This document shows, in pieces, positions 1,580 to 48,040 of a stretch of 64,000 bases of DNA; position 1 is the stretch's first letter; each line of letters begins with the position of its first letter. A model generated the notes under the pieces. That model saw only the letters and a list, made by a program, of their open reading frames with translations, ran no database searches and was not told the DNA's origin. The translations under genes were made by a program, and so were the position numbers. Origin of the DNA: an uncultured Gammaproteobacteria bacterium (GTDB lineage Bacteria > Patescibacteriota > Microgenomatia > UBA10105 > UBA927); NCBI GenBank assembly GCA_964629685.1, contig CAZVTT010000003.1, forward strand, positions 22,038 through 86,037. The letters run 5' to 3'.

Positions 1580-1584
1580 TCGTT

Positions 1585-2628: not shown

Positions 2629-2629
2629 A

Positions 2630-4105: not shown

Positions 4106-4108
4106 GAA

Positions 4109-5296: not shown

Positions 5297-5297
5297 A

Positions 5298-6476: not shown

Positions 6477-6488
6477 ACCGATGTATAT

Positions 6489-9229: not shown

Positions 9230-9243
9230 ACGCTGTACCCTAC

Positions 9244-12247: not shown

Positions 12248-12250
12248 GAT

Positions 12251-13402: not shown

Positions 13403-13452
13403 ACTTCAATTCAGATATACCGTAGTGTCAAAAATATATCTGTACGATAGTT

Positions 13453-14445: not shown

Positions 14446-14446
14446 A

Positions 14447-15667
14447 TTATCTGCACTCACCCTGATACTGTGCCGGGATCTGTGAGCAGTACGACTCGAG
14501 CGCTGCAGTATTGCCCGGATTATAAAACCGAACCGCACCACTCAACGTCGAAAAACAGGCAGTGCGGGCCGGTCCTTCGGCAATTGCAGTACAAAACCGT
14601 ATTGCTACCGTTACATCATTCTCCCCGCCCCAATACAATGTTTGCGTAATCGCCCGTAAACAGGCATCTACCCCGAACGCATTCCCGGCCAGCTCGCACC
14701 AGGAAATCGCCTTAGCAAATTGTGCATCCGTTAATTGTCCGACTTTACGGATATCCCGGTCCTGCACCAATACAATAAACTCTTTTCCGAACCCGCCGTA
14801 ACAGGCGTCACGATTGCTAAAATCATTCAGAGATAACGCACTACAGTACGAAAACGCTTTGGGAAAATATTTTTCCTCGGGGTCTCCCAAATCCGCGCCT
14901 GCCCGCTGAAACAATAAGGGCGTCAGATACAGGTAACACACGGACCTGGAACTATCGGGAATATACTCTGACGAACACGGCGTAAGCATATCCGCGGTAT
15001 CCAAATATTTTTTGGATTGCTCCGCCCAGGCTTTTTGGTTATGCGATCCGCCGGAGATTATTTCCATTACGGCACCGCCGACACATTCGGCCGCTTCCCT
15101 AAATTGATACTCCGGTGTTCCTGTCTTCTGACAGAGCTGCACAGCCCGGGGCATATCGTAATTTACGGCAGCCAATACCCCGTGTCCCAGTCCATGAAAA
15201 CACATAGTATATGCACCGCTGCCGCCGGGAGCCGTCCGGCATATCTCAGAAATTTCCGGCAATGCAGCCTCAGCTTTTTCCATATACAACCCAACCACAA
15301 TCGAATGCGAACACGCATTCCGAAAATCCTGGGTACATTCGTATATGCCCTTCACTCCCTGTTGTTTATACAACTCATCCCCGACTATGTGGCCCAGCAA
15401 ATGCAGGTCCGTATTGGCGGGAAGTGTAGCCAGACGCAGCAGATCGAAAGCATATACTGCTCCATTCTTTTCCGCTTGAGACTGGAAATAATGTGTCAGT
15501 TCCGGAAATGATTTACCGCGCAAATCCACGATTTCATTGGTATGCCGAACGGCGACGTTTCCCTGTCGGTTCCGAAAATACAGGAACACCACATTAATAC
15601 CCACCAACAGTATCACCAGTACCAGACGAACCAGGCGGGACGTGTGAACTCGGGATTTGGTACTCAT
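14447..15667 (-). CDS. CH-family secreted Cys/His-rich repeat protein (subfamily E)
   Basis: 406 aa. Anchor LVRLVLVILLVGINVVFLYF. Motifs LHLLGHIVG, ACSHSIVVGLYME, MCFHGLGHG. 73-nt gap to the upstream small gene. Confidence 0.55.
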   Translation of the reverse strand: MSTKSRVHTSRLVRLVLVILLVGINVVFLYFRNRQGNVAVRHTNEIVDLRGKSFPELTHYFQSQAEKNGAVYAFDLLRLATLPANTDLHLLGHIVGDELYKQQGVKGIYECTQDFRNACSHSIVVGLYMEKAEAALPEISEICRTAPGGSGAYTMCFHGLGHGVLAAVNYDMPRAVQLCQKTGTPEYQFREAAECVGGAVMEIISGGSHNQKAWAEQSKKYLDTADMLTPCSSEYIPDSSRSVCYLYLTPLLFQRAGADLGDPEEKYFPKAFSYCSALSLNDFSNRDACYGGFGKEFIVLVQDRDIRKVGQLTDAQFAKAISWCELAGNAFGVDACLRAITQTLYWGGENDVTVAIRFCTAIAEGPARTACFSTLSGAVRFYNPGNTAALESYCSQIPAQYQGECR

Positions 15668-16432: not shown

Positions 16433-18271
16433 ATGCCAATGATCTCGCTTCCGTGGGCATTCATGCTTGCAATACTATCCCAAATCAGCGCACTCATTGC
16501 TGGTGTGGGAATAGTACTCTTCCCGGGACTTCCGCTCTCTGCACTCATACCGCAAACGGATAAAAATGTCGGCGTACGGATTTTACCCGTTATAGCGTTA
16601 TCACTGAGTACCTGGATTGCCGTGTTCACCCTCCTGAAATTCATTGCACTGCCGCTGGATGTCTGCATCTTTAGCATTCTACTGATCTCAATGGCGGTAT
16701 GGATTATCCGTCTTTCCGTCAGGAAGACACGTATCCGGGTAATTCGGCCGGACATTTGGATGTGTGGCGTAGGACTTATACTTTCGCTCCTCTTCGGGCA
16801 GCTTGCCGTTTCACTCATAGCCCCGTCCGGAGGAGACATGGCCACCCACAGTTATATTGCACGGCTTATATTGGAAAAAAACACCTATCCTGATTCGTAT
16901 GAGCCACTCATACCTATCCGTCATTTCGGCTCGTACAGCAGCGGAATGCCGCTCGTTATTGCCGTAGTATCACGCACACTGAATATTCCCATTTATACCG
17001 GCGCACTGCTGGTTACCATTGCCACCTATGTCTGGTTCGGATTATCCCTATACTATTTTCTGCAACACTTCTTCCCCCGCCCTATCAGTGCGGGTACGGC
17101 ACTTTTCGCAACCTTGTGTAGCCCGGCTGTACTGTACTATCTCCCCTGGGGCGGAAATCCGACGGTACTTTCACTTGGATTTTTAGTGCAGGCGATCACA
17201 CTCAGTCTGGAACTTCTGTCCGCACACAAAACGTCTCTTTCCGTTCGTGCGGCTATACTGCCGGGTTTGGTATTTTTCGCGTCATTTGCGACACATCATA
17301 TTCCGTTCATTGCATCGCTCTACGCGTTGATACCGATACTGATCGGATACGCGTTGCAAAGCACCGGAAAACGGTTTTTCTTTCGTTTTACGCTGACACT
17401 TGCGGGAACGCTTGCCCTCCTCAGCATACCGTTTTTCTTGGATGTGAAGTACCCCAGTCCGGCGACGCTGGAACTCATCCGCGACTGGCAACGCGGAGAC
17501 CATGGTCACGTCTGGCGCGGCACACTATCGACAATTATTCCTACGCTGCCGCTCTATCTGATGGATAGATTGGGTTCGTTGACGATGGCTGCAGCCACAG
17601 GAGCGTTACTGGTCACGCTGTTTATCCGCCGTAAAATACCCACGTGGTTCGTTTGGACGCTGGGTATGGGAATATTCGGCATCATAAATTCCCGATACTG
17701 GCTGCTTCCGCTTTCACCATTATTATATCCGGAGCGGATAAGCACGATCCTCATTATTCCCTTTTCGTGGTCTATCGCTCTGGGAATTACCGAAAGTATT
17801 CAGGTACTAAAACGACTCAAACCGAACGGCATAGGGATCGTACTTGGCAGTATCGGTATATCCGTTATCATTTGGGGAAGTATCCCCGCTTTCAGGCACA
17901 ATTTCTCGGAAACTATCGCCCGTAGCCAAGCAGAAACATCCGTGACGGGTGATGACCTCCGGGCAATACTGTGGATTGCCGCCAATACTCCAGCCCATGC
18001 AATTATTGCCAATAACTACGGGGACGCAGGAATATGGATTCCCGCTATTGCCTACCGGAAAGTTACCTATAATGATGCAAACCCGTATGATTTTGATGAA
18101 CTGTTCGCTGCCCAAAGACTCCTGACACCTACATATATGTATATAGGAGCAAAAATTGTCTATTCGCAGGGTGATCATCTGCGTTTCACGATCTCTTCAC
18201 CGGAAATACGAAACGCGAGCCCCGTCTTTCGATCAGGAAACGCCCGTGTTTTCCCCCTGTTTTCACCATGA
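16433..18271 (+). CDS. Polytopic membrane protein (GT-C-like architecture), function unknown
   Basis: 612 aa with more than 12 hydrophobic helices. Divergent from the CH array. A candidate -10 TACAAT lies at about 16409. The stop overlaps the start of the next gene (ATGA). Confidence 0.45.
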   Translation: MPMISLPWAFMLAILSQISALIAGVGIVLFPGLPLSALIPQTDKNVGVRILPVIALSLSTWIAVFTLLKFIALPLDVCIFSILLISMAVWIIRLSVRKTRIRVIRPDIWMCGVGLILSLLFGQLAVSLIAPSGGDMATHSYIARLILEKNTYPDSYEPLIPIRHFGSYSSGMPLVIAVVSRTLNIPIYTGALLVTIATYVWFGLSLYYFLQHFFPRPISAGTALFATLCSPAVLYYLPWGGNPTVLSLGFLVQAITLSLELLSAHKTSLSVRAAILPGLVFFASFATHHIPFIASLYALIPILIGYALQSTGKRFFFRFTLTLAGTLALLSIPFFLDVKYPSPATLELIRDWQRGDHGHVWRGTLSTIIPTLPLYLMDRLGSLTMAAATGALLVTLFIRRKIPTWFVWTLGMGIFGIINSRYWLLPLSPLLYPERISTILIIPFSWSIALGITESIQVLKRLKPNGIGIVLGSIGISVIIWGSIPAFRHNFSETIARSQAETSVTGDDLRAILWIAANTPAHAIIANNYGDAGIWIPAIAYRKVTYNDANPYDFDELFAAQRLLTPTYMYIGAKIVYSQGDHLRFTISSPEIRNASPVFRSGNARVFPLFSP

Positions 18272-18999
18272 AAAAATTCTGTGTCATTATTCCGGCATTT
18301 AACGAAGCGGCTACCATAGCCGGGGTCATCAAAAACATCCAAAAACACTATCCGACATGTGCACTCATCGTCGTTGATGACGGATCAACGGATAACACCG
18401 CACAGATAGCCGGAGATCTGGGGGTGCTTGTCGTCCGTCATACAACCAACCGGGGAATCGGTGCAGCCGTGCAAACGGGTTTACGCACAGCCATCGCACA
18501 GCGTTACTCTACCGTGGTTCAATGCGATGCGGATGGTCAACATGACCCGGCAGAAATGAACACGCTCCTGCAGGCAGCTGCGGATTCCGTCGCACTCGTC
18601 ATCGGCAACAGATTCGGAAACCCGAAAACCTATGCTTCGCCGCTATCCCGCAGGTGGGGTTCCCGGCTATGTACCGCAGTGTTATATTGCTGTTTTGGTC
18701 GTCCGGCGATATCCGATCCCACGTCAGGATTTCGCCTCTATACCGGACCGGCTCTGCCGTTGTTTGCCGCAAATTACCCACGTCATCTTCCGGAACCGGA
18801 ATCAATTGCACTCGTCCTGAAACACGGACACCGTATCCGCGAAGTTCCCGTGGTTATGCATCAGCGTCAGGGCGGCATCTCATCAATAACCAACCGCAAG
18901 GCACTCTTCTTGCTCTTTGCAATACCTTTTGGCATACTGTGGATCGCGTATACCGGCACGCTTTTTGCGTGGCCGCACGAACGACGCACACAGGCATGA
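18268..18999 (+). CDS. Family 2 glycosyltransferase (polyprenyl-phosphate sugar synthase-like)
   Basis: N-terminus FCVIIPAFNEAATI. VVDDGSTDNT. Acidic motif QCDADGQHD. 4-nt ATGA overlap with both neighbours. Confidence 0.75.
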   Translation: MKKFCVIIPAFNEAATIAGVIKNIQKHYPTCALIVVDDGSTDNTAQIAGDLGVLVVRHTTNRGIGAAVQTGLRTAIAQRYSTVVQCDADGQHDPAEMNTLLQAAADSVALVIGNRFGNPKTYASPLSRRWGSRLCTAVLYCCFGRPAISDPTSGFRLYTGPALPLFAANYPRHLPEPESIALVLKHGHRIREVPVVMHQRQGGISSITNRKALFLLFAIPFGILWIAYTGTLFAWPHERRTQA

Positions 19000-20285
19000 A
19001 ACCAACTTCACCAGCAGCCGTCACCATCATCGGATTAGGGTACGTTGGCTTTCCGCTCGCGGCTGCCCTATCCTCCGGGACAGATACCACTGTCTACGGT
19101 CTGATCACGTCACAAGAAAAAGCCGGACGGATTACCGATAAAACGTACAACCCCGATATTCCCGGTTTTTCCTGGAAAGGAATTACCATTACCGCCACCA
19201 CTTCCCCGGAAACCTGCCTGCCGCACTCGGATGTGATCGTGGTTTGTGTCCCCACACCGGTATCTGCACGCCATAAACCGGATATCACGGCACTAAAATC
19301 TGTGCTGAAAACAATCGGCAGGCATCTGCACTCAGGTCAACTTATCATCATCGAATCCACTGTGGGACCGGGAATGATGGAACAGGTATGCATCCCGCTG
19401 TTGGAACGCTCCGGTTTCCGGGCAGGACAACAGTTTGACGTCTCATATTGTCCGGAACGGATAAATCCCGGAGATACTGTGCATCCGCTTACCAAAATCC
19501 CCCGCATTGTCGCTTCCACGTCACCCGCCGGTTTAACCAAAACAACCCGATTTTATGAACGGATAATCCGTGCCCCGATCGTGCCGGTACAATCCTTCGG
19601 CATCGCCGAAACGGCAAAGATGTTGGAAAATGCGTTCCGTGATGTAAACATGGCCCTTATCCATGAATTTGCACTGGCCTGTGAAACATTACGCATACCG
19701 ATTGCGGACGTGATTGCTGCAGCTGCCACGAAACCATTTGGCTTTATGCCATTTTATCCGCGTACCGGCGTCGGTGGGGATTGTATTCCGGTAGACCCGT
19801 GGTATCAGATAGATGCAGGCAACCGACATGGTTTTTCTCATAGGCTGCTCACTACCGCCAGAACCATAAATGCGTCCTATCCCAAAAGCATCACGACATA
19901 CGTACGAAACCTGTGTCGGCATCACCGCATAAATCCTAAGCGCCATGCTGTCGGCATATATGGACTATCATACAAATCCGGAACCAAAAGTCTGTCAAAT
20001 AGTCCGGCACGTATTATCGCAAAGCAATTACGAAAAATATTCCGGGTGCATACCTACGACGACGCACATCCGGAACTTTCTACGGTAAACACCGTGTATG
20101 ATTTGGTAAATACCTGCCGCGTACTGGTTGTCTGTACGGACGATCCGTTGGCACTGGAAGCTCTCGCAGAACTCCTGCACGGAAAAACCTCAGTTACGTT
20201 GCTCATAGACGGAAGTTATACGTTACGCAGTCAGCTTGCGGATATTTCTCATATCACGGTAACAGGCATCGGTATACCGGAGTAG
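18996..20285 (+). CDS. UDP-sugar 6-dehydrogenase family (UDP-glucose/GDP-mannose dehydrogenase-like)
   Basis: Track ORF is 18654..20285, but its first 114 codons overlap the GT2 gene. Start placed at the Met at 18996 (MKPTSPAAVTIIGLGYVGFPLAAAL, a Rossmann GxGxxG). Catalytic-Cys motif GVGGDCIPVDP. Confidence 0.7.
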   Translation: MKPTSPAAVTIIGLGYVGFPLAAALSSGTDTTVYGLITSQEKAGRITDKTYNPDIPGFSWKGITITATTSPETCLPHSDVIVVCVPTPVSARHKPDITALKSVLKTIGRHLHSGQLIIIESTVGPGMMEQVCIPLLERSGFRAGQQFDVSYCPERINPGDTVHPLTKIPRIVASTSPAGLTKTTRFYERIIRAPIVPVQSFGIAETAKMLENAFRDVNMALIHEFALACETLRIPIADVIAAAATKPFGFMPFYPRTGVGGDCIPVDPWYQIDAGNRHGFSHRLLTTARTINASYPKSITTYVRNLCRHHRINPKRHAVGIYGLSYKSGTKSLSNSPARIIAKQLRKIFRVHTYDDAHPELSTVNTVYDLVNTCRVLVVCTDDPLALEALAELLHGKTSVTLLIDGSYTLRSQLADISHITVTGIGIPE

Positions 20286-20291
20286 ACACCG

Positions 20292-20915
20292 TTACTTTAA
20301 CCGAAACTCCACCTGCATGGATTTACCGTTGGAAAGACGGATCGGAAAATCTTCATCCTGATCCAGATTTCTGTTGCCGTTTACATCTTTTACTCCCAAA
20401 GCCAACATTCTGGCACCTGCCGGTAACGGAGCATATTCCTTGGCGCTATCATTTAACTTAATAGAGAAATCTATATATGTATCAGGCTCCAAATAAATGG
20501 TCGATGCGACAATCAGTACACCGTTGTTAAAATCAAACCACTTAACCACTAAAAAACCCGGCTCGGGAAGTACTAATTTCTTCACTCGTATACTGTTTTC
20601 TACAACCTGATCTTCTATTTCTATCGGGACGATATCCTGCTGGACCCGGGAATATCTCCAGTACGCAAAACCACCACCCGCGGTAGCCACCAATACGATA
20701 AGTATCACGGATACTAACAGCCAGGGGAACCGTTTTCCCGACGAAACCGCCGGAGAAACCGGAGGAGGCACCGGCGGCAGCGGAGCCGCAACCGGAGGCG
20801 TTGCCGGTGTCTGATACTGAATCTGCGGCGCGTACGGTGGCGGTGCAGCCGGCACGGGAACAACCCCGGAGGTATCCGGCGCAGGCATTGGGCTCTGCGG
20901 GGCAGGTTGATCCAT
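20292..20915 (-). CDS. Membrane-anchored protein with Pro-rich cytoplasmic N-terminus and an extracytoplasmic domain shared with 32737 and 33788
   Basis: 207 aa. PAPQSPMPAP..PPPYAPQ N-terminus. TM WLLVSVILIVLVATAGGGFAYW. Shared motif VLPEPGFLVVKW. Confidence 0.5.
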   Translation of the reverse strand: MDQPAPQSPMPAPDTSGVVPVPAAPPPYAPQIQYQTPATPPVAAPLPPVPPPVSPAVSSGKRFPWLLVSVILIVLVATAGGGFAYWRYSRVQQDIVPIEIEDQVVENSIRVKKLVLPEPGFLVVKWFDFNNGVLIVASTIYLEPDTYIDFSIKLNDSAKEYAPLPAGARMLALGVKDVNGNRNLDQDEDFPIRLSNGKSMQVEFRLK

Positions 20916-22078: not shown

Positions 22079-22191
22079 TTGATGGTAATCATAAAAGATA
22101 GCTACTATCTCATCATAGTAGAGAGATAGTTAAACTCAAAAACCCCATGAATACAATTGCGTTTACACTACGGGAAATAAACACCCGTATC

Positions 22192-23772
22192 ATGCCGAAA
22201 CTTAACGAGGTACTGCGTAATCTTATTTTCCGGTATACCCATTTACCGCTGTGGACACTGGCCTTGGGATTCATGTGTCTTGTCTTAATCGGCCGTATAC
22301 CGCTTTTAAAATCCCCCACGCTTCCCATTAACGACGGAGGACTTTTTATCCCTGTTGTCAGAATGATACGGACGAACCCGCTTAGTTATCCCCAAAATAT
22401 GGGGTACAACCTCCCTATTCCCTTTGCTTACCCACCCCTGGGCATGTATCTGCTCGCAGCAATTTCTGCAGTCATTCCGAATGCAGAACTTCCGTTGTTT
22501 ACCCTCACACCATTTATTATTGCAATACTCTGCATCCCGCTCTTTTTTTTATTGGCATATTACCTGACAAAATCACGATCCATTGCCGGAATCGCTACGC
22601 TTATTACCGCCATTATCCCGGAAAGTTATCAGTGGATAATCATGGGAGCGGGTATCACCCGGGCTACAGGTGCTTTTTTTGCACTGTGCACCTTGGTAGC
22701 TGTAGTACTCTGGCAACAAAAACCGTCGAGACTGTTGTTTTGTCTGATAGGATTATTTTGCGGACTGGTATTCTTATCGCATCCGGATACATCCGTTTTT
22801 ATCGTTTATTCCGTTTGTATTTTTATACTTACAGATCAAACCGAAACACTTGTTCAACGGATACTTACCATTATGGGTATTCTGGGGATAGGCGGTATCA
22901 TCGCAGCCCCATGGCCTATACGGGTTATCACCTTCCATGGATTTACCCCGTATGCGTTTGTCGCTGAACTCCGACAACACAATGGTTTTCCGATGGAAAA
23001 TCTTATTTGGATACTGAGTAACGAACTCCAATATCGACTCCTGCTTGTTTCTGCGGCAAGTGGAATACTAATTGCCTATTTTACGAAATACAGAAGACTC
23101 ATCATCTGGGCAGCTGTCGTTCTCGTAGCAAGAGCAACCTCCATGATTTCATTCGATGTTTTTCCATTAGCACTCTTAGCCGGTATAGGGTTAACTACTC
23201 TACCGGTAATCTTCACAAAACAGATATACCGACAAACGTATAAAGCAATAGTAATCATGTTTCTGCTTTTCTCGTTCCCATGGTCAGTACAAACGGTATC
23301 GGAACGGTTTACCAGATTAAGATCCGATGATATCAGTGCACTTGAATGGGTCAAACAATTTACTCCGCAGTCTGCACGGTTTATTCTCATTTCATCACAA
23401 CCGGATTGGTGGAAGGATGCAGTACCGGAATGGTTTCCGGCGATTACTGGACGAATAAGTCTGGTTACCGTACAAGGCTCCGAATGGACTCCATTCACCG
23501 AACATCACCGTACCATCCTGTTCCATCAGGCAATCCGGCGCTGTAATCAAAGCACAATAGCTTGTATAGAATCTGCAGCAACTTTAGCAGCACTACCGTT
23601 TTCTCATCTCTATCTCGTAAAACACAAAGATCAACCCGGAGTTGGAGATTATTGTCCTCTGCTTCTGCATTCAATACGTAATTCCGCTAATTATCGGGTA
23701 ATTTTTGGAAATGAAGCAGCAGAAATATGGGAAAGAACAGACACACTCCCCAGCTCTAAACCTTCCACTTGA
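22192..23772 (+). CDS. Polytopic membrane protein, NDGG-loop family (GT-C-like); paralog of 28411..29955
   Basis: Track ORF starts at 22147. Start moved to the Met at 22192 (MPKLNEVL) from alignment with the paralog and because a TACAAT box at about 22152 lies downstream of 22147. Motif LPINDGGLFIPVV. C-terminus KDQPGVGDYCPLLLHSIRNS is shared with the paralog. Confidence 0.5.
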   Translation: MPKLNEVLRNLIFRYTHLPLWTLALGFMCLVLIGRIPLLKSPTLPINDGGLFIPVVRMIRTNPLSYPQNMGYNLPIPFAYPPLGMYLLAAISAVIPNAELPLFTLTPFIIAILCIPLFFLLAYYLTKSRSIAGIATLITAIIPESYQWIIMGAGITRATGAFFALCTLVAVVLWQQKPSRLLFCLIGLFCGLVFLSHPDTSVFIVYSVCIFILTDQTETLVQRILTIMGILGIGGIIAAPWPIRVITFHGFTPYAFVAELRQHNGFPMENLIWILSNELQYRLLLVSAASGILIAYFTKYRRLIIWAAVVLVARATSMISFDVFPLALLAGIGLTTLPVIFTKQIYRQTYKAIVIMFLLFSFPWSVQTVSERFTRLRSDDISALEWVKQFTPQSARFILISSQPDWWKDAVPEWFPAITGRISLVTVQGSEWTPFTEHHRTILFHQAIRRCNQSTIACIESAATLAALPFSHLYLVKHKDQPGVGDYCPLLLHSIRNSANYRVIFGNEAAEIWERTDTLPSSKPST

Positions 23773-24406: not shown

Positions 24407-25516
24407 ATGAAAACTCATACTACTTCTCTTCTTTCGTTCATTGCGTTAGGTATCATTGCGGGAATGATATTTGCCGTTAAGCCACAACTGGTTGATGCTG
24501 CCTGCAATCTGAACAACACGTTTAAAGGAAACGTTACCATTTCCGCCAACTGTACTATAGATGCCAATACTATCGAAGGATTGGATCAGGCTCAGGGAAC
24601 CGAAGGACAAACGACCAACGCTGCAGTGCTCACGGTTAACAATAACGCCACCCTTACCATTGCCGCAGGTACTACCCAAACTACCACGGTTATTCCCGGA
24701 ACCATAGTGCTTACCGGAGGCGGTAGAGTCAGTATGGCAAATAGTAACACCAGAATTCTCACCAATTCCCCAACCTGGATTGGAGACCGTGACGCAGATG
24801 GTTATATGGCCAGCGCAACGGCATTTGCATCAACTGCGAGTGCCAGACGCCGCAGGGGACTCATGCGGGATTCCACCAACGACTGTAACGATGTTTCGTA
24901 TCATATGTATAACGTATGTTATGCGTATGGACAGGGCTACTATCAGGCGTATTACTACGGCTATGGTCAGGGCTACTATCAGGCGTATTACTACGGCTAT
25001 GGCCAAGGCTACTATTACGGCTACGGTCAGGGGTACTATTATGGCTACGGCCAAGGCTACTATTACGGCTACGGTCAATCCTGGTATTACGGCTACGGTC
25101 AATCAGCCTACTACTGTTTCCTGGAAGATACAGAAATCCTCATGGCAGACGGATCACGGAAGGCAATTAAAGACGTCCATGTCGGCGATATGGTGCAATC
25201 ATATGACACTGCTACCGGATCATTTAAGGCAGACCGTGTAGTCGCTCACATCGTTCACCCACAGGTAGACGGAACGTATCTTACGGTAAACGGCAATCTG
25301 CACGTAACGGCAAACCATCCGGTCTATATCAACGGGTCGTGGCAGGACATGGGTAATGCTCGAGTCGGTGACACCCTGGTCAATGACGCAGGACAAACGG
25401 TCACGATCACCTCCATTACCGAATCTGAACCGGGTATTCATGATCTGTATAACCTGCACCTCGCAGGAAAAGATCATAACTACTTCGCCGAAGGCGTGTT
25501 GGTTCACAACAAATAA
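24407..25516 (+). CDS. Secreted protein: signal anchor, Thr/Asn-rich beta-rich region, Tyr/Gly-rich tandem repeat, C-terminal Hint (bacterial intein-like) domain
   Basis: Track ORF starts at 24386. The Met at 24407 (MKTHTTSLLSFIALGIIAGMIFAV) follows the upstream stop directly. Hint block A is CFLEDTEILMADGSRKAIKDVHVGDMV (Cys codon at about 25115). TxxH block is LHVTANHPVYI. Terminal block is NYFAEGVLVHNK followed by stop. Confidence 0.7.
   Translation: MKTHTTSLLSFIALGIIAGMIFAVKPQLVDAACNLNNTFKGNVTISANCTIDANTIEGLDQAQGTEGQTTNAAVLTVNNNATLTIAAGTTQTTTVIPGTIVLTGGGRVSMANSNTRILTNSPTWIGDRDADGYMASATAFASTASARRRRGLMRDSTNDCNDVSYHMYNVCYAYGQGYYQAYYYGYGQGYYQAYYYGYGQGYYYGYGQGYYYGYGQGYYYGYGQSWYYGYGQSAYYCFLEDTEILMADGSRKAIKDVHVGDMVQSYDTATGSFKADRVVAHIVHPQVDGTYLTVNGNLHVTANHPVYINGSWQDMGNARVGDTLVNDAGQTVTITSITESEPGIHDLYNLHLAGKDHNYFAEGVLVHNK
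24926..25113 (+). repeat. In-frame tandem repeat of 24-33 nt encoding about 7 copies of YGYGQGYY(QAY)Y
   Basis: tacggctatggtcagggctactat(caggcgtattac) reiterated with synonymous variation immediately before the Hint Cys codon. Coordinates by eye. Confidence 0.7.
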
Positions 25517-25575: not shown

Positions 25576-27132
25576 ATGAAGATAGTTAAGGGAAACAACC
25601 GACCGTATTTTCTGGCGCTCTGTATATTCGGTATCAGCTTTCTTTTTCAGAGTCGAAATATTTTCCTTGAACCATACAATGCATACGAAATCCGTCAGTG
25701 GGAAACGTATGCTGTTATCCGTGATTATGCCGTAAACAATACTCCGTTTCTTTCGCCCCGGGCCAGTCAGATTTATTCTCCGGAACACAAACCGGAAGAG
25801 CGGTATTTCCTGTTGGACTTTCCCTTATACTCCTATACGTCTGCACTGGTAGCACGGATCACCGGAGTATCGTTCTTTCCTGCCAGGCTGGTAAATAGTA
25901 TTGCCACTGCCGCAACCACAGTGGTATTGTTTTCCATTGCGGTATTTCTAACCCACAAAAAATCCATAGCTATTCTCGCAGCTATTATATTTAATACCGC
26001 CGCAGCTACCGCATTTCTTTCGGTAGCAGTACAACCGGATATGTTTATGCTGCTGTTCCTTACGGCGGCTTGGTATACCCTGCTCCGACGATCAAAAAAC
26101 GACTTGTGGTATGGATTGATGTTCACCACCATCGCAGTCTTACTGAAAACCTATACGCTGCTCATCTTGGTTCCAACCATTTCGTATCAACTTTGGACCA
26201 CAAAAGACAAGCGATATTTGTGGTATTTCATTATTCCGCCGCTCGCGTATAGTGGCTGGATTTTACAAAAACTGGGAACGGATAGTTTTACCTGGTGGTG
26301 GATTCCCGCACCGCAAAGTATTTGGTGGGACAGACAAGCATACAGTACGTCATTTTTGGCGGGTATACGGCATACGAATGCCATTGCGTATATCCGGGAA
26401 ACAGTTCAACGACTCTTCAGCGGCGGAATACTCACTGCTCCCCAATTCATACTCATGTGTATCGGAATCATAACACTCCGGAAAAAACATGGGGCAGCAA
26501 GTCGACAGCTGCTGCTTTATTTCATCGGATCTGTCTGCTTTTTTTTCGCAGTTCTGAGGGGGAATAATTTACACGTCTACTATCCTCTGCCGTTGGCTCC
26601 CATGGCGGCCATCGCCACCGCATACGGCCTTATCGTTACTGTAGATTTGTTACGGCATTTACTTTTTTCCGATAGTCTGCAGAAGCAGTATCGCGGTATT
26701 TGTCTGGGAATACTTATGCTCGTTGGCTTGTATATTCATGTTGCCTACACCCATGTCAGAACGGTCACACTACTACGCCAACATGAAATATACCGCTTTG
26801 CAGCCAATTGGACCAAAAGTCAAACAATCGTTCCGCCGGGTGCCACGATTGCCTTATTCCATGAAGAAGCGTCACCGGTGTTTTTAGCCATGATGAACCG
26901 CGTAGGTTGGCCGCTAAAATATCAGAATATTACCTGCCCGGATCATGAAGCCACACTTCGTCAACTGCAACCGGATTATATTATTATTTATGCACTTACA
27001 CACAACGCACCCGAAGACATGAACTGGATAGATGATCAGACGCTTATTTCGTGCTTACAACATATAACCGGTTCTCAACCGCTATTTAGCAAACAACGAA
27101 TAACCGTATTCCGCTATCCACGGAAAGAATGA
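25576..27132 (+). CDS. Polytopic membrane protein, GT-C-like (putative lipid-carrier glycosyltransferase)
   Basis: 518 aa with about 11 hydrophobic helices. Acidic first-loop segment FLEPYNAYEIRQWE. Confidence 0.45.
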   Translation: MKIVKGNNRPYFLALCIFGISFLFQSRNIFLEPYNAYEIRQWETYAVIRDYAVNNTPFLSPRASQIYSPEHKPEERYFLLDFPLYSYTSALVARITGVSFFPARLVNSIATAATTVVLFSIAVFLTHKKSIAILAAIIFNTAAATAFLSVAVQPDMFMLLFLTAAWYTLLRRSKNDLWYGLMFTTIAVLLKTYTLLILVPTISYQLWTTKDKRYLWYFIIPPLAYSGWILQKLGTDSFTWWWIPAPQSIWWDRQAYSTSFLAGIRHTNAIAYIRETVQRLFSGGILTAPQFILMCIGIITLRKKHGAASRQLLLYFIGSVCFFFAVLRGNNLHVYYPLPLAPMAAIATAYGLIVTVDLLRHLLFSDSLQKQYRGICLGILMLVGLYIHVAYTHVRTVTLLRQHEIYRFAANWTKSQTIVPPGATIALFHEEASPVFLAMMNRVGWPLKYQNITCPDHEATLRQLQPDYIIIYALTHNAPEDMNWIDDQTLISCLQHITGSQPLFSKQRITVFRYPRKE

Positions 27133-28318: not shown

Positions 28319-28410
28319 TACTTGCTATTGTTATACAATCGCATCGGTATTACGGTGTGATCACATACTTCTGCTCCGTGTACATTCTGCTAAAATTTCC
28401 GCATACAGAT

Positions 28411-29955
28411 ATGATACCTACCAATAAACTCATCCGCCGGATACAAACTTTGCCGCTTTACCACCTTATACTGCTGATTACCGTTCTTGTCTTCATAGGA
28501 AGAGTTTCCCTACTCTCATCCCGTCTTCCCATAAATGACGGAGGCATTTTTTTATCTTTGGTCCAAACACTCAGCAAACATATATGGCAGCATCCCGAGA
28601 CATTGGGATATAACCAAAGCGCCATTCCGTTTGCCTATCCCCCGTTGGGAATATATATCCAGGCAATAATTACCCGTATATTGCCGCTTACAGCTCTTGC
28701 CCTCTTTACGCTTGTACCGTTTTTCGTATCACTCTGCTGTATTCCGGTTTGGTTTTATCTTTCGTACCGTATTACCGGATCCAGGAGTATTGCCGTTTTC
28801 AGCACATTGCTGGCTGCCGGCATTCCGGAAAGTTTTCAGTTATTGATCATGGGTGCCGGTATCACCCGGGCCTGGGGAACACTATTTGGATTACTGTTAC
28901 TGGTATGCATCGACGCATGGCAGCAATCAGGAAAACGAAAATGGTATCTGCTTAGCGGAGTCTGTTTGGGGTTGGTAGTAATTACCCATCCGGACGCCAC
29001 GGTGTTTAGTGCGATTATCGGGACGTTGTTTTGGTTCCGGCGGACAAAAAAAATTACTCCCCGAAGCCTTCCCGGATATATTGGAATTGGTAGTATTGCC
29101 GGAATCATTGCCGCACCATGGATGCTGTCGGTGATTCAAACCCATGGCCTTAGTCCCTTCGCTGCCGCTTCCCAAACCAGACGATTCACTGAACTGCTGG
29201 CTTCAAATATATTCTGGATTTTTAAAATAGAATTTCCATACCGCTGGTTGCTGCTGTTTACCTGCATTGGCATATACGGTACCTTAAAACAAAAGCGCCA
29301 TATCTTCCTTCTCGTCTGGCTTATCTTGGCAATCACCATCCGCTCCAATTCCATGCTGACATTTGATATCTTCCCGTTTGCGCTGTTGGGGGGCATTGGT
29401 ATTTCCGCTGCAGCACGACTATTCTTCAATGCCAAATTGGTATTGCACTATTATGTCTACTGTCTGATTTTTATGAGCTTAACCCTTTTTTGGTCGGCTG
29501 CATATATCGGAAAAACCATACCCAGATTGCAGCAAACGGATTACGAACTGTTTGCCACAATCCGTAAGGAAACTCCCCCAACGGCATCTTTTCTGATTAT
29601 TACCCCGGAAAAAAATTGGTGGAATGACCACATACCCGAATGGTTTCCTGCACTCACCGACAGAAAAAGTATCCTTACGGTACAGGGAACCGAGTGGTTA
29701 CCGCAGCACGAAATTAACCGCCGGATCAAATTTTACCAGGAGATCCGCCGCTGTAACACCGAAGATGTTGAATGCATAGAATATGCTTCCCGCAATAACG
29801 GCGTATCATTCACACATATTTATATGGCTCTGGCAAAGGATCAACCAGGTGTTGGAGACTACTGCCCGTTACTCTTGCGTAGCATCCGCACGTCTTCGCG
29901 GTATCGGGAAATGAACGGCACCACAACCGGTGCCGTTTGGGAACGGATAGAATAA
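28411..29955 (+). CDS. Polytopic membrane protein, NDGG-loop family (GT-C-like); paralog of 22192..23772
   Basis: The track ORF starts at a GTG at 28357. ATG at 28411 (MIPTNKLIRRIQTLPLYHL) preferred, with a TAAAAT box at about 28391. Motif LPINDGGIFLSLV. C-terminus KDQPGVGDYCPLLLRSIRTS. Confidence 0.5.
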   Translation: MIPTNKLIRRIQTLPLYHLILLITVLVFIGRVSLLSSRLPINDGGIFLSLVQTLSKHIWQHPETLGYNQSAIPFAYPPLGIYIQAIITRILPLTALALFTLVPFFVSLCCIPVWFYLSYRITGSRSIAVFSTLLAAGIPESFQLLIMGAGITRAWGTLFGLLLLVCIDAWQQSGKRKWYLLSGVCLGLVVITHPDATVFSAIIGTLFWFRRTKKITPRSLPGYIGIGSIAGIIAAPWMLSVIQTHGLSPFAAASQTRRFTELLASNIFWIFKIEFPYRWLLLFTCIGIYGTLKQKRHIFLLVWLILAITIRSNSMLTFDIFPFALLGGIGISAAARLFFNAKLVLHYYVYCLIFMSLTLFWSAAYIGKTIPRLQQTDYELFATIRKETPPTASFLIITPEKNWWNDHIPEWFPALTDRKSILTVQGTEWLPQHEINRRIKFYQEIRRCNTEDVECIEYASRNNGVSFTHIYMALAKDQPGVGDYCPLLLRSIRTSSRYREMNGTTTGAVWERIE

Positions 29956-31097: not shown

Positions 31098-32765
31098 TTA
31101 TTTTCTGAATAACTCCACCGCTGAAAGCGTATACCCGTTATGCGCCACAGTTGTTGTATTCCCGAGAGCATATTCCCCGATTATTTTGCCCAGCGGTTCA
31201 TCATTATGCATATTGGGGTACAGAATCAAAAAGGCCTGTGCTGGCATCTCCGTCAATAGCTGGGCCGGTGTCCGGATGTTTATGGGTACTGCGTGTTCTC
31301 CTTTTAATTTCCGGCGCCCTGTTTGTTTATCGATATATTTATAGTCATCAAAATCCAACACCGTCCAGGTAAACTGTTCATGTACTACATATATTTTTTC
31401 AGTACCCAACTGTCGGATCAGGTCTTCCGTCAGAAACGGGAGTTCCATAAATTCAGCGTTATATACCAGCTCGTCTTTTCCGTATCCGTTGTCTGGGTGG
31501 GTAAATGTACTCATAGCCAGCAGTGTATGATTTCCGAAGGTGAAGGTCCCGAACACTGCGCGGGAAACCGGATCTATAGTCCGGTAAAACGATGCATATA
31601 TCCCGGCCAACAAAACCACCAACGTTGCAATTCGGACTACCCTGTTCCGGAACAAATATATCCAGGCATCGGCAAATACCATAACCCCTATCGGTACCAG
31701 CGGCAGCATATACCGCGGATTATTTACGAACTTTATTCTGGTTATACAGATAGTTTCCGCAACCAAAAGCAGAAAACAAAACATCACCCAACGCTTGTCT
31801 TCATGGGTACGTACTGCTTCCGTTTTTGTTTTGCCGATCCAGTGGGTACACCCCCGCAGCATACCGGCTACTAAAACCGCAGCCGTCATTATCCAGGAAA
31901 AATTTAACACGTATGCCACCAAAGTTTGCCCCAGAAAAAATCCGTCAAACTGCCGGGCAGCGGCCACGGTTTTCATCACACTGAGCCAAGTCGTATCCCC
32001 CGAAGGCAAATGCGGGAAAGGGGGTTTTATCTGCATATACCAAAGCAATAACAACGGTGGAATGGTAAATATCCACCAGGGAATCCGGTTCCCCCCGTTA
32101 TGGGGGTCGGATTTTCCCCGTAAGAAGGCAACGAATCCAAACACGGAAATAATTATCCCGTAATATACGGCACCGGTTTCTTTACTGAAAATCAGCAGGA
32201 GTCCGAATATTCCTGCCAGGATATACTTCCGGAAAAACAGCGCCGTAATGAAATATAAAGAAAAAACTGCCAGCGGTAAATCCAGACTCGGCTGTAACAA
32301 CTGTGCCAAGAGAATCGGATTAAAACCGAAAACGAACGTATACAAATCAATTTCACTTCCGGATATACGCGGATAAAATACTTTCCCCAGCACGCTGCGC
32401 AGACACAGTAAACCACCGATTACCAGCAGTAATGCTGTCACCTGTACCGATAATACGTTTCCCGATGCCACAAACTGCGACACCGAAAATAAACCTACCG
32501 AAGCAAGAGAATTATGACCATCGCACTGCAGCATTCCCGTAACGGGAACCTGCTGGTAACAACGGAAGAACACCCAACTATCCCAAACGGGTAAAACATT
32601 TGCATACGGCAGAACCGTACCGATCAGTACGAGCGTTAATACTCCAAAAAGCCAATACTCACGCAGAACCGCAGCAAAAAAACTGCGTATAACAACCTTC
32701 CGGTGTGCGGCTTTGCTCACATTCACAATGTTCAACCTAAGGACAGGAAATATGTACGGCGTCAA
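31098..32765 (-). CDS. Polytopic membrane protein (GT-C-like), co-directional with CH gene 29961
   Basis: 555 aa with more than 12 hydrophobic helices. Overlaps the upstream gene by 29 nt. Confidence 0.45.
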   Translation of the reverse strand: MTPYIFPVLRLNIVNVSKAAHRKVVIRSFFAAVLREYWLFGVLTLVLIGTVLPYANVLPVWDSWVFFRCYQQVPVTGMLQCDGHNSLASVGLFSVSQFVASGNVLSVQVTALLLVIGGLLCLRSVLGKVFYPRISGSEIDLYTFVFGFNPILLAQLLQPSLDLPLAVFSLYFITALFFRKYILAGIFGLLLIFSKETGAVYYGIIISVFGFVAFLRGKSDPHNGGNRIPWWIFTIPPLLLLWYMQIKPPFPHLPSGDTTWLSVMKTVAAARQFDGFFLGQTLVAYVLNFSWIMTAAVLVAGMLRGCTHWIGKTKTEAVRTHEDKRWVMFCFLLLVAETICITRIKFVNNPRYMLPLVPIGVMVFADAWIYLFRNRVVRIATLVVLLAGIYASFYRTIDPVSRAVFGTFTFGNHTLLAMSTFTHPDNGYGKDELVYNAEFMELPFLTEDLIRQLGTEKIYVVHEQFTWTVLDFDDYKYIDKQTGRRKLKGEHAVPINIRTPAQLLTEMPAQAFLILYPNMHNDEPLGKIIGEYALGNTTTVAHNGYTLSAVELFRK

Positions 32766-33783
32766 TCAGGGCCACAGACTGTTCAAATGGTCCTCCCATG
32801 TCTTCTATATGTAATCCGATATACACCGGGTTCGTGGAAGCATCGTCACTGCGGTGTATCACGGTTTCCTCACCATCCAATAACACCGATATTTCAGCTG
32901 TAGTGCCAACCCGCCGCAAGTGCAAGGTGACGGATGCATCAGCCGATACCGGGAATCGAGTGGGACCAACAACAGAATTTATCGTTCCGTCTATATATGA
33001 ACCGGATTCATCCTGATACCAGGTAGCAGCCAAAACATGTTCATACGGACCGGAATACGCCGTCAATCGCGTAAACGTCGGATCGGCCATGGGAGTCACG
33101 GAAAAAGAACGATATGTTGCAGTCACGTCAAAATCACCGGTAAGCAATTTTTTAGTAGGTAACCGGGTGTTTTGACCATACTTAATCGGCAGGATCAGCG
33201 CATCATCCTCAAGATCGGTAACAAATAACGGTTCCCATACCTCTAGATCAAGATCGGGGCCGTTAAATTCTTCCGTCACCTCAGCGTCACACGTCATCGT
33301 TGCCGGTTGTACTTCTTGTGTAATTCGAAATGTCCGTTCAATCGGATTCCCCATCTCGTCCAACATCGGATCCGAATCAAATTCAGTTAAGAACCCGTCT
33401 CCGTCCACATCCGGAAATACCATTGCGACAAGCGCGTTTGAATCCTGAGCCTGTAGCCATTCGTCCCGAAAAAATGCTAACTGCACATCTTTATGCGTTC
33501 CCGCTTCCAGCTTCCCGGAGAGGGCATATACCGCTCCCGCGCTTGGATACCCTTCGTCTACTCTGACGACAACGAAACCGGGTTTTGGTAAGGTTACCCG
33601 TTTAATCAGTACAGATCTTCCCTGTAGCACCTGATTCCGGACATCTATAAATCTGTCCGGCCGCAGCCGCATATACCAATATATTCCCCCGAAAATACCC
33701 AAAACCAAACCCGTACCGATGAGGAGGATTAGGGTTCTTTGAACGACCAGCACAATATCCCGGGATGAACTATTCGGTGCCAT
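32737..33783 (-). CDS. Membrane-anchored secreted protein with LPxPGF domain and a C-terminal beta-rich domain
   Basis: 348 aa. TM LILLIGTGLVLGIFGGIYWY. Motif VTLPKPGFVVVRV shared with 20292 and 33788. Confidence 0.5.
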   Translation of the reverse strand: MAPNSSSRDIVLVVQRTLILLIGTGLVLGIFGGIYWYMRLRPDRFIDVRNQVLQGRSVLIKRVTLPKPGFVVVRVDEGYPSAGAVYALSGKLEAGTHKDVQLAFFRDEWLQAQDSNALVAMVFPDVDGDGFLTEFDSDPMLDEMGNPIERTFRITQEVQPATMTCDAEVTEEFNGPDLDLEVWEPLFVTDLEDDALILPIKYGQNTRLPTKKLLTGDFDVTATYRSFSVTPMADPTFTRLTAYSGPYEHVLAATWYQDESGSYIDGTINSVVGPTRFPVSADASVTLHLRRVGTTAEISVLLDGEETVIHRSDDASTNPVYIGLHIEDMGGPFEQSVALIDAVHISCP

Positions 33784-34334: not shown

Positions 34335-36200
34335 ATGCCCGACGAAGTACAGCTAACGCCACCCGTCCGGGGGATTCAATTTCTCCGCACGCTTCCCCTG
34401 CTTGTTGCCATCGGTATTAGTCCCGTTTGGTTTCTGCCAGTTACCCAGGACCCGTTTGATACCGCGAAATTTTTCTTACTTATCGGTGCCGCACTTTTTT
34501 CCGCACTCCTGTGGATACTCGGAGGGATAGGACAGTTTAAACTCCATATTACCCGCTCCTGGCCGTTGGCGGGATTACTGCTGCTGGGAATAACCGGAAC
34601 CGTCAGTGTTCTCTTCATATCCCAAAATAAAGCGGAAGGACTGCTTACCGCTTTCGGACCGCTGCCGTTTTTCAGTCTGGCCATCCTTATGGCATTTGGC
34701 TGGTCAGCATGGGAAAAAGAGCGGCTACTCATACGCAAACTGCTTATCGGGCTGGCCAGTGTCATGGGAGTATTCGCTACGTACCAATCCCTAAACCTGG
34801 GAAAAATTTTATTTCCCGGGATTATCAGTCTTTCTGATCCGTTATGGACTCCACTCGGATCGCCACTGGCACTGCTCGTGTATTTGGCTGTCATTGCACC
34901 GCTCACGTTCACGCTCATCATCCCGGGCATACGGCATAAAAAAGAAAAGTCGGTGGCACTGGGGTCCGTATCGTTATTATGTATCGTCGCCGGATTTGTC
35001 ATCACCTTATTCCAATTCGCACCCAAGGTCAGCACGGCTTTTCTGCCGTATCAGGCGGGAATTTCAACCGCACTGTCGGCAATGAATGATCCCAAAACGG
35101 CGCTATTCGGCGTTGGCCCGGAAGCGTTCCTAACGGCATTTACCGCTAATCGTCCGCCTGCATTAAATATGACGGCGCTCTGGAATGTCCGCTTTTCTAC
35201 CAACGCCACGTTTCTGCTGCATATGCTTTCGGTTACCGGAATTTTCGGCGGCATTGCGTTTCTGGTATTTTGCCTTTCGCTCTTACCGACAAAACTTACA
35301 GCCGGCCATTTCAGCCGCGCATTGGCGGTTATCGCCCTGATCATTCTGCCTCCCACGTTTCCCCTTATACCCCTTGCTTTGGCAATATTTTTTGTCACCG
35401 AAGAACACAAATCACCCACCTGGACCATAACCTTACCCCGGATACCGGGAATACTAAAGAAAGGATTCCTGATACTCCTGTTACCCCTACTCGTCCTGTG
35501 CGGGTACTTTGCGTTCCGGGCGTATGCTGCGGAAATCGTGTACTACCGTTCGGTAAAACCCAGCGCTACCGTAAACGGCACGGATGTGTACAATATTCAA
35601 ATTCAGGCAGTAAAACTTAATCCCATGTCTTCCCGGTTCCGGGCAGCATATTCCCAAACCAATCTGGCCCTTGCCAGTGCTATCGCCAACGCCAACCGCA
35701 CGGGATCGGGCAGTGCCCAATTGGAAAATTTAACGGAAAAAGATAAACAGATAGTAACCCAACTTATTCAGCAATCCATTCGCGAAGCCAAAGCCACAGC
35801 AAATTTAGCCCCAAAAAATGTAGCGGCCTGGGAAAATCTGGGGCTGGTCTACCAAAACTTATTCGGTATCGCAGAAGGTGCCGATAAATGGGCTATAGCC
35901 GCTTTTCAGCAAGCAATTACACTTGATCCCACCAATCCGTTGCTCCGGCAGTCGCTGGGAACTATATATATGGCACAACAAAATTACACGGAAGCCATAT
36001 CCCAGTTTTCCGCCGCAATCGAACTGAAACCGGATTTGGCGAATGCCTACTACAATCTGGCGAACGCCTACAGGATGACGGGAGATAATGCCCGTGCCAT
36101 TACGGAACTTACCCACACCAAGGGTTTACTTACCCCCGGAACGAGTGACTATATCAGAGCAGATAACGAACTGAAAGAACTCCAAAACGCCACCAAATAA
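34335..36200 (+). CDS. Polytopic membrane protein with C-terminal TPR repeats (O-antigen ligase/polymerase-like)
   Basis: 621 aa with about 10 TM helices. The C-terminal 200 aa carry TPR-like repeats (AWENLGLVYQNL.., AISQFSAAIELKPDLANAYYNLANAYRMTGD). Confidence 0.4.
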   Translation: MPDEVQLTPPVRGIQFLRTLPLLVAIGISPVWFLPVTQDPFDTAKFFLLIGAALFSALLWILGGIGQFKLHITRSWPLAGLLLLGITGTVSVLFISQNKAEGLLTAFGPLPFFSLAILMAFGWSAWEKERLLIRKLLIGLASVMGVFATYQSLNLGKILFPGIISLSDPLWTPLGSPLALLVYLAVIAPLTFTLIIPGIRHKKEKSVALGSVSLLCIVAGFVITLFQFAPKVSTAFLPYQAGISTALSAMNDPKTALFGVGPEAFLTAFTANRPPALNMTALWNVRFSTNATFLLHMLSVTGIFGGIAFLVFCLSLLPTKLTAGHFSRALAVIALIILPPTFPLIPLALAIFFVTEEHKSPTWTITLPRIPGILKKGFLILLLPLLVLCGYFAFRAYAAEIVYYRSVKPSATVNGTDVYNIQIQAVKLNPMSSRFRAAYSQTNLALASAIANANRTGSGSAQLENLTEKDKQIVTQLIQQSIREAKATANLAPKNVAAWENLGLVYQNLFGIAEGADKWAIAAFQQAITLDPTNPLLRQSLGTIYMAQQNYTEAISQFSAAIELKPDLANAYYNLANAYRMTGDNARAITELTHTKGLLTPGTSDYIRADNELKELQNATK

Positions 36201-37863: not shown

Positions 37864-37870
37864 AAATCCA

Positions 37871-47807: not shown

Positions 47808-47840
47808 ACGCAAATTACAAAATCCATACGATCCTAAAAA

Positions 47841-48040
47841 GGAGAGTGGCGCGGGGGTTTTTACGAAGCCTGCCTGCCGAAGCTTTAGCGCAGGTGGGAT
47901 TTACAGGCGACTCTTACACATTGCTAAGAGGTAAACGCATGTCATTTTTTTGCGAGTGAAAAGGCGCGGGGAATTGTCTAATTTTTATGCCACCCAGGAC
48001 TGAGTCCGACGAGCAGAAAAAATGGATATGCGTGTACCCG
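47841..48040. repeat. Intergenic repeat (locus c), diverged mosaic of modules A and B
   Basis: ctaaaaaggagagtggcgcgggggtttttacgaag...ttacaggcgactcttacacattgctaagaggtaaacgcatgtcatttttttgcg...ggactgagtccgacgag. Recognisably related to loci a, b and d. Confidence 0.5.

Follow-up and report, generated by a model that had tools for sequence, protein, structure and literature searches.

What is an intein-like domain doing at the very end of a secreted bacterial protein, where a single lysine separates it from the stop codon? This question is raised by a gene for a 369-aa protein in a 64,000-nt stretch of contig CAZVTT010000003.1 (positions 22,038 to 86,037 of the forward strand), hereafter the window, in which all coordinates are counted from the first letter (Table 1). 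The protein consists of a signal peptide, a Thr/Asn-rich domain with four conserved cysteines (the N-domain), an aromatic low-complexity repeat and a terminal Hint domain. Our analysis, which draws on sequence comparison, a structure model and analogy with characterized relatives, suggests that it is probably a Sec-exported surface protein of ultra-small, uncultured bacteria of the candidate phyla radiation (CPR), carrying at its C-terminus a type-A bacterial intein-like (BIL) domain that removes itself; the adjacent gene encodes a conserved membrane-anchored partner.

A Hint domain at the C-terminus of a secreted protein

The terminal domain matches the Pfam family PT-HINT (PF07591) with 52.5 bits against a cut-off of 27.7 (E 7.9e-14; residues 246-368, 133 of 137 profile positions) and Vint with 36.9 bits against 27, so that the profile search which the initial annotation of this DNA had proposed as a check placed two Hint models over their cut-offs. 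When a profile of 32 homologues was compared with PDB sequences, the best matches were 8w20 (E 1e-21), the BIL2 structures 6tmm and 6y75 (E 1e-20) and 2lwy (E 9e-17), all of which outrank every true intein. The AlphaFold2 (AF2) model of residues 237-369 has a predicted local distance difference test score (pLDDT) of 92-98 and shows a mini Hint of 132 aa with neither an insert nor a homing endonuclease. In a Foldseek comparison with PDB libraries, the top structures were BIL2 6y75 (E 5e-12, template modelling score on the target 0.78) and the C. thermocellum BIL 2lwy (0.86), with mini-inteins and Hedgehog ranking below both; 66 matches reach E <= 0.001, and the best 50 of them consist entirely of Hint domains from BILs, inteins or Hedgehog proteins (target scores 0.7-0.86). 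The Hint assignment is far beyond chance, and the domain has the features of the superfamily: the fold, a block A nucleophile as first residue and the block B motif T-x-x-H.

The domain runs from CFLEDTE through VTANH to VLVHN, followed by Lys369 and TAA. The block A Cys, the TxxH block and the terminal HN are thus where the initial annotation had read them (Cys237, T301-A-N-H304 and His367-Asn368), and its view that a protein with a signal peptide ends in a Hint domain is borne out by the PT-HINT score, the BIL matches and the AF2 fold. The same annotation had the stop codon follow His-Asn directly and saw no C-extein; this has to be corrected, as Lys369 intervenes and is conserved across the family. 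Type-A BILs have an intein-like C-terminal His-Asn and no nucleophile at +1 (PMC4031507). At the level of sequence, the window protein shows every feature of this class: its Hint ends in H367-N368 (His-Asn in 41 of 44 family members), the +1 residue is Lys and not Cys, Ser or Thr, and the host, which has a signal peptide, is a variable, non-conserved secreted protein among whose relatives Hint-bearing and Hint-less ones are interleaved and whose N-domain occurs with many kinds of C-terminal part.

The translation is identical to that of the initial annotation. The ATG lies one base past the TAA of the upstream ORF (open reading frame), and the two genes are therefore taken to be translationally coupled; an alternative in-frame start, a GTG, is found at 24386, and homologue P0002 begins at the equivalent upstream position. 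The signal sequence has a basic n-region, a hydrophobic helix (residues 4-23 in the AF2 model) and a c-region, VDA/A, which resembles a signal-peptidase-I site and where cleavage presumably occurs; the A-x-A then x-C pattern is kept among the 32 aligned homologues. A lipoprotein was rejected, as the conserved Cys33 stands one residue past the A-x-A site and the residues before it form no lipobox, and so was a recoded or read-through stop, the stop being TAA and relatives terminating at the same place. A promoter and terminator scan gave signal no better than shuffled sequences.

Conserved residues and the lysine tail

A search for homologues returned about 35 full-length co-linear proteins of 333-387 aa, of metagenomic origin and with Microgenomates among the source labels, and later searches added further members, including one from a Saccharibacteria metagenome-assembled genome (MAG). 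Three family members carry CPR labels (Microgenomates, Saccharibacteria) and one is labelled 'Hint domain-containing protein' at NCBI. In the alignment of 32 homologues, which are 37-79% identical to the window protein, Cys237 is invariant (32/32), and T301, H304, H367, N368 and the tail Lys are each at least 90% conserved. A table of the tails of all 44 family members shows that 41 end in His-Asn plus one to eight residues, and that every one of these 41 tails contains a Lys, at +1 to +4. The 22 distinct tails (for example K, KI, WK, WK[LMI], EKI, AKV, xWK[NQ], LIVKY and EKVGFVSK) vary in length and in their other residues while the Lys stays, and the +1 residue is Thr in a single case and K, E, W, V, A, H, L, F or I in the other 40, which thus have no Cys, Ser or Thr at this position. 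This pattern suggests that a minimal, constrained C-extein exists in the family.

The three remaining members (P0023, P0025 and P0034) end in HPK, LQH and HPR. They have lost both the terminal Asn and the T-x-x-H motif, which now reads I-N-x-G-Y, and keep Cys1 and the Hint fold; their Hint may be inactive or act differently. The combined loss is what would be expected if the two half-reactions cooperate. The conservation of His-Asn, the Lys tail and the joint loss with T-x-x-H together argue that both half-reactions are in use, including the C-terminal one by Asn cyclisation, which would be type-A BIL behaviour and compatible with a mini-splice onto the Lys tail. P0023 has in addition a LamG-like insert of about 240 aa in its N-part.

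The persistence of the domain and Cys1 in these three proteins, and the replacement of the block-F Asp, seen in the aligned 8w20, by Asn (YNL) in the window protein, could also point to a catalytically silent Hint, that is, a folded binding or solubilising module which stays in the mature protein and never cleaves. We regard this as quite improbable, since Cys1, T-x-x-H and His-Asn are kept in about 90% of the members at the degree of divergence given above, the constrained tail is kept with them, and natural Hint-less versions indicate that the N-part does not need the domain.

A second alternative follows from PT-HINT being the best Pfam model, namely a decayed polymorphic toxin, which has lost its toxin domain or has it encoded at another place. 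Among PDB sequences the best match, 8w20, is a 1368-aa HINT-containing protein in which the HINT precedes a toxin, and which is probably an umbrella-toxin protein of the UmbC type. The nearest Hint relatives outside the family (P0042-P0055) have 80-136 aa after His-Asn, one with a known toxin Pfam domain, as expected of a pre-toxin HINT. PT-HINT domains are defined by their place just before the C-terminal toxin that they release, and by an immunity gene linked to them (Zhang et al. 2012, PMC3482391). The window protein does not have this architecture: it has no toxin domain, only Lys369 lies past its Hint, and no toxin or immunity gene is present in the window. Its TAA is followed by 59 nt and then by an unrelated PMT_2 gene, and across the compared loci the downstream genes differ, with no conserved or immunity-like gene among them. 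Moreover, the members, some 40 in number and drawn from many samples, all come to their stop 1-8 aa past His-Asn, and in a decayed remnant neither the catalytic residues nor the tail would stay conserved. A decayed toxin is thus highly improbable.

Terminal or near-terminal Hint domains are present in other lineages too. A contig scan with the sub-alignment A5 returned two family loci and unrelated Hint proteins. Small, nearly all-Hint proteins occur in Gammaproteobacteria MAGs (L007:7803-8405 and L008:2803-3378) and in Deltaproteobacteria/Sandaracinaceae MAGs (L009, L012 and L013). In one type the Hint follows an N-part of about 55 aa and the protein ends in HNQR-stop; the other has a short hydrophobic N-part ending in GCCG/C (the Hint beginning at the slash), the Hint, and HNK with an acidic tail of about 25 aa.

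The N-domain, the aromatic repeat and Hint-less relatives

The N-domain is predicted to form a short right-handed beta-helix, followed by a D-x-D-A-D-G-W / TATASGRRRxGLM / DCND...N-x-C-Y module, and it holds the four conserved cysteines (33, 49, 160 and 171). No conserved Lys is found in it in the homologue alignment. An exhaustive search of representatives with an N-domain profile gave 740 representative clusters (50% identity), 422 of them at E <= 1e-10, where a word-indexed search had given three proteins. In nearly all of the 150 listed, the domain occupies residues ~25-165 of host proteins that range from 168 to 2391 aa. The C-terminal parts of 121 N-domain proteins without a Hint are varied, including Gly_rich_2 (13), DUF2341 (5), LamG, Kelch, BNR and fn3, and this variety is the ground for regarding the N-domain as a constant module that carries variable C-terminal parts. 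It is shared by a large number of secreted proteins, of which at least a part come from CPR bacteria, and it defines a large and apparently unnamed family. A few giant proteins (among the set P0058-P0192) hold 13-26 partial copies of its second half.

Between the N-domain and the Hint lies the repeat (residues 172-236), which is 48% Tyr, 28% Gly and 14% Gln, with a strict 8-residue period, YGYGQGYY. Both the Tyr/Gly-rich repeat directly before the Cys and the beta-helical N-domain had been recognized in the initial annotation. The AF2 pLDDT of the repeat is below 40, a usual sign of disorder, and the repeat ends with Tyr236, which occupies position -1 at the Hint junction. Every Hint-bearing N-domain protein has an aromatic low-complexity repeat right before Cys1, of the kinds YGYGQGYY, YAYSQSAY(WR) or, in P0060, F-Y-P-[SGA]; the conserved feature thus seems to be an aromatic low-complexity tail and not one particular sequence. 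The F-Y-P-[SGA] tetrapeptides replace the Tyr/Gly/Gln repeat in P0059, P0060, P0070 and P0075, with a Hint in P0060.

Other proteins (for example P0036-39, P0057, P0059, P0062, P0070, P0075 and P0094) have the same N-domain and an aromatic repeat but no Hint, and end a few residues past the repeat. In a tree of the N-domain, a rough neighbour-joining one without support values, Hint-less proteins stand beside Hint-bearing ones (P0062 with P0028, P0059 with P0060, and P0038 with P0003/P0005), which suggests that the Hint has been gained or lost repeatedly. The architecture of these natural Hint-less relatives is the very one expected of the cleavage product. They provide the strongest comparative argument for the Hint being a removable processing module.

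The same relatives could be cited in favour of a canonical mobile intein near the 3' end of the gene, which would splice the Tyr repeat to the short tail and have no role for the host. Two of them, P0039 and P0057, end in W-R-K-A-[IV], resembling the Hint tails W-K-[LMI], and intein_Cterm, the sole NCBIfam model to pass, does so barely (16.7 bits against 15.6). Against this, the +1 residue is Lys here and a non-nucleophile across the family but for the one Thr, there is no homing endonuclease, and the models Intein_splicing (13.7 against 35.8), intein_Nterm (15.2 against 24.5) and Hom_end_hint all remain under their cut-offs. The host is also a variable surface protein and not a conserved enzyme site, a difference that defines the contrast between BILs and inteins (PMC7765530). 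A mobile intein is hence scarcely credible, in agreement with the initial annotation, which had excluded a splicing intein.

Proposed route of self-processing

In type-A BILs the N-terminal junction forms a thioester and the C-terminal one is cleaved by Asn cyclisation; the freed amine can ligate the flanks, and cleavage products dominate (PMC4031507, PMC7765530). By analogy, the signal peptide of the window protein would be removed, the N-domain would fold as a disulfide-stabilised, adhesin-like beta-helix, and the Hint would fold outside the cell. Cys237, aided by Thr301 and His304, would then attack the carbonyl of Tyr236 in an N-to-S acyl shift, leaving the Tyr-rich repeat held by a thioester at Tyr236/Cys237, while Asn368 would cyclise with the help of His367 and break the Asn368-Lys369 bond. 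Once the thioester was resolved the Hint would be discarded, giving a mature product of the beta-helix and the Tyr/Gly/Gln repeat. In this way the Hint would serve as a removable cap, and on leaving would give the sticky, aggregation-prone repeat an activated C-terminus; the benefit to the cell could be the transient capping of the repeat or the activated C-terminus.

Several fates of the thioester can be considered. Hydrolysis to a free carboxyl is the likeliest single one, although at less than even odds. Aminolysis by the tail Lys, giving a ...YY-Lys mini-splice as in type-A BILs or in BIL2 of the BUBL1 polyubiquitin-like locus, is also possible if somewhat more doubtful. BIL2 joins the C-terminus of its N-flank, without ATP, to the epsilon-amine of a Lys in its C-flank or in other proteins (PMC8616854). 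That the repeat is passed to an amine or hydroxyl from outside, belonging to the cell envelope or to a host, is rather unlikely, and the remaining chance is that no reaction takes place. Autocleavage and ligation are thus plausible by analogy. Going further, the terminal Hint could be an ATP-independent, single-use transpeptidase (a 'sortase without a sortase') that passes the Tyr-repeat thioester to a Lys epsilon-amine and so fixes the adhesin covalently. The acceptor could be the tail Lys in cis, which would amount to an isopeptide mini-splice, or else an amine of the host cell or of the envelope of the bacterium itself. This more far-reaching idea is speculative, and on balance we rather doubt it.

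Besides the block-F Asn and the roughness of the N-domain tree, a number of points weigh against self-removal, or against a role of the Lys in it. An extracellular, oxidising setting could oxidise Cys237. A single freed lysine is a poor diffusing nucleophile, and ligation to it needs attack in cis. The naive chance of a Lys in 41 of 41 tails, about 1e-21 at a background of 3.3% Lys, ignores shared ancestry. The sequence ...LVHNK is also present in related Hint proteins of myxobacteria, which have longer C-flanks, and the tail Lys may be a trait of a Hint subclade, for example one that tunes Asn cyclisation, and not a ligation acceptor.

Comparison with known systems

Type-A BILs, as far as the work of Amitai (2003) and Dassa (2004) is summarised in PMC4031507 and PMC7765530, and with 2lwy as solved example, share with the window protein Cys1, the block-B T-x-x-H, the C-terminal His-Asn, the lack of a +1 Cys, Ser or Thr, a variable secreted bacterial host and the fold. 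The window family differs in that its Hint stands at the very end, with a C-flank of 1-8 residues which always contains Lys, in the aromatic low-complexity repeat that forms the N-flank of the window protein, and in that the labelled members of the co-linear family are CPR. Among solved structures BIL2 of Tetrahymena thermophila BUBL1 is the closest, it ranks second among the sequence matches, and it too has a Lys in its C-flank. It is, however, eukaryotic and intracellular, with ubiquitin-like domains on both sides, whereas the window protein has a Lys stub and a Tyr-rich N-flank. Isopeptide formation in the window family is accordingly put forward here as a hypothesis, by analogy with BIL2.

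With the Hog domain of Hedgehog proteins the window protein shares the position of the Hint fold, C-terminal in a secreted protein, and an expected Cys1 thioester that would detach the N-part. In contrast to Hog, it falls under the cut-off of the Hedgehog-type Pfam Hint model (PF01079; 28.3 bits against 29.7, covering the N-terminal 80 residues only), has no sterol-recognition region, and has Tyr instead of Gly at -1; it also has a terminal His-Asn, which Hog domains lack. A Hedgehog-like role limited to N-cleavage needs neither a terminal His-Asn nor a tail, and their conservation therefore favours type-A BIL chemistry. To our knowledge there is no evidence that CPR bacteria make sterols. The arrangement of Hedgehog/BIL type proposed in the initial annotation is thus retained in its BIL half, on the strength of PT-HINT, the PDB profile and Foldseek, and given up in its Hedgehog half.

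The proteins described by Burglin (2008; PMC2362128) from Myxococcus, Stigmatella, Photorhabdus and Serratia have a signal peptide, a Cys-bearing N-region and a C-terminal Hint-like domain, as does the window protein. They were described as a divergent subgroup with motifs A and B only, while the window Hint has blocks A, B, F and G, and their N-terminal parts are unlike that of the window protein, a distinction drawn from the description only.

Regions rich in Tyr, Gly, Ser and Gln are found in the SYGQ-rich domain of FUS and in Tyr-rich structural or adhesive proteins. The window repeat, which is dominated by Y, G, Q, S and A and has a very low AF2 confidence, resembles these regions; the likeness is one of composition without homology, and the window repeat is bacterial and extracellular, with a strict period of eight residues.

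We found no literature on this CPR family, on a Hint domain in CPR, on a Tyr-rich repeat combined with a Hint, or on a Lys mini-flank. The kind of domain is well known, while its terminal placement before one conserved Lys is undescribed. Outside toxin release, the natural role of BIL domains is largely unsettled, and here the C-side offers nothing to release but a conserved Lys, so that a role of the BIL must concern the N-terminal product. A construct of about 200 residues would make a clean test system for whether a natural BIL uncaps, activates or ligates an extracellular protein. The surface biology and host attachment of CPR bacteria are also poorly understood, and this family pairs a constant N-domain and a partner with variable C-terminal parts. 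If the transpeptidase idea were true, it would provide a case of natural extracellular BIL ligation in episymbiotic CPR bacteria; if the Hint merely falls off by hydrolysis, the protein extends the repertoire of Hint domains in a tidy but ordinary way.

The partner gene and its genomic setting

Genomic context was compared through the loci of homologues. The partner gene lies directly upstream on the same strand in nine of nine loci, two of which have Hint-less relatives, and in one of the nine the N-domain protein has DUF2341 in place of the Hint (hhalign probability 99.6%). Since the partner also stands upstream of Hint-less and DUF2341 proteins, its association is with the N-domain rather than with the Hint, and the two genes make up a conserved cassette. 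In the product of the partner gene (187 aa here, about 180 aa elsewhere), a Pro/Thr linker joins an N-terminal transmembrane (TM) helix to an all-beta domain, which measures about 100 aa and ends in V-A-P-R. This protein may serve to dock the N-domain at the membrane. No Pfam match was obtained for it, and neither a profile of the partner gene nor two proteins of the array described below gave a PDB sequence match.

The constant presence of a membrane-anchored partner, in a locus rich in PMT_2-type enzymes, invites a further explanation, namely anchoring of the Hedgehog or sortase kind. The Tyr236 thioester would mainly be resolved by an outside nucleophile, such as a stem-peptide amine of peptidoglycan, the hydroxyl of a lipid or glycan, or a Lys that belongs to the partner or to a protein of the host cell, and the surface protein would be fixed by its C-terminus. 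That the Hint, like that of Hedgehog, is the last part of a secreted protein, and that BIL2 transfers its N-flank to Lys of other proteins, would fit this explanation. Yet only 1-8 residues follow the Hint, leaving no region for adduct recognition, and the conserved His-Asn and tail Lys would be superfluous. The partner has no invariant Lys across eight loci, just as the N-domain has no conserved one, and it accompanies Hint-less relatives and an unrelated C-terminal head equally well. The partner was for these reasons set aside as Lys acceptor, and anchoring as a whole we hold to be unlikely.

Table 1. Features of the gene pair, of partner genes at other loci and of neighbouring multi-TM ORFs
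Feature	Position	Strand	Remarks
Whole gene	24407..25516	+	369 codons + TAA
Signal peptide, residues 1-31	24407..24499	+	sequence, AF2 helix; cleavage predicted
N-domain, residues 32-171	24500..24919	+	Thr/Asn-rich, predicted beta-helix, 4 Cys
Aromatic low-complexity repeat, residues 172-236	24920..25114	+	(Y-G-Y-G-Q-G-Y-Y)n
DNA tandem repeats encoding the Tyr-rich repeat	24926..25102	+	periods 24, 36 and 48 nt
Hint domain, residues 237-368	25115..25510	+	type-A BIL / PT-HINT class; Pfam, NCBIfam, PDB profile, AF2, Foldseek
Cys237 (Cys1)	25115..25117	+	predicted thioester nucleophile; invariant in aligned homologues
Block B, T301-A-N-H304 (T-x-x-H)	25307..25318	+	at least 90% conserved; aligns with T-V-N-H of BIL2
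Block G, His367-Asn368	25505..25510	+	at least 90% conserved; Asn predicted to form a succinimide
Lys369 (one-residue C-flank) and TAA	25511..25516	+	Lys in 41/41 family tails after His-Asn
Partner gene, 187 aa	23842..24405	+	directly upstream in 9/9 loci
Partner gene elsewhere	L001:7458-7997, L003:7430-7990, L004:7435-8001, L015:5483-6004		
Partner gene elsewhere, continued	L016:226-768, L017:5414-5989, L018:5460-6038, L019:2520-3023		
Unusually dense ORFs of ~500-620 aa, 8-11 predicted TM (examples)	22147-23772, 25576-27132, 28357-29955, 31098-32765, 34335-36200		
Same ORF set, further stretches	36211-37917, 39082-42338, 46185-49611, 56003-61908		

The window is dominated by multi-pass glycosyltransferases of the PMT_2 type, sugar-nucleotide enzymes and DUF7282 proteins. 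Two of the multi-TM ORFs were scanned and both match PMT_2 (GT-C glycosyltransferase), one over and one under the cut-off, and a UDP-glucose dehydrogenase is encoded at 18654-20285 (+). With these multi-TM ORFs and the dehydrogenase, the window therefore looks like a cell-envelope glycosylation island. The dehydrogenase ORF begins at a GTG 346 nt inside ORF 18268-18999 and its Pfam domains start at residue 122, and its true start is probably further downstream than 18654.

At 62-15667 (-) lies an array of twelve ORFs for paralogous, single-pass membrane-anchored proteins of 360-510 aa, with a 10-TM ORF (6489-8069) interspersed. It is orthologous to, and syntenic with, arrays that adjoin the gene pair divergently in L001, L003, L004, L017 and L018; relative to the arrangement at the compared loci, about 7.5 kb of glycosylation genes are inserted between array and gene pair in the window. 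Of the 18 flanking ORFs that were scanned against Pfam, 12 belong to the array, and for these the only hints, of cupredoxin or Ig-like domains, stayed below threshold. In the 64 kb neither a tRNA gene nor an Rfam family at the gathering score was found, and the GC content of the window is 47.9%.

DUF7282 proteins are encoded at 20292-20915 (-) and 32737-33783 (-), and recur near the Hint/N-domain cassette in L001, L004, L015 (three copies) and L017. At L019:4773-5767, two genes of the prepilin type (N_methyl) lie directly downstream of the N-domain/DUF2341 protein and its partner, which hints at a link between the N-domain family and type IV pilus-like systems.

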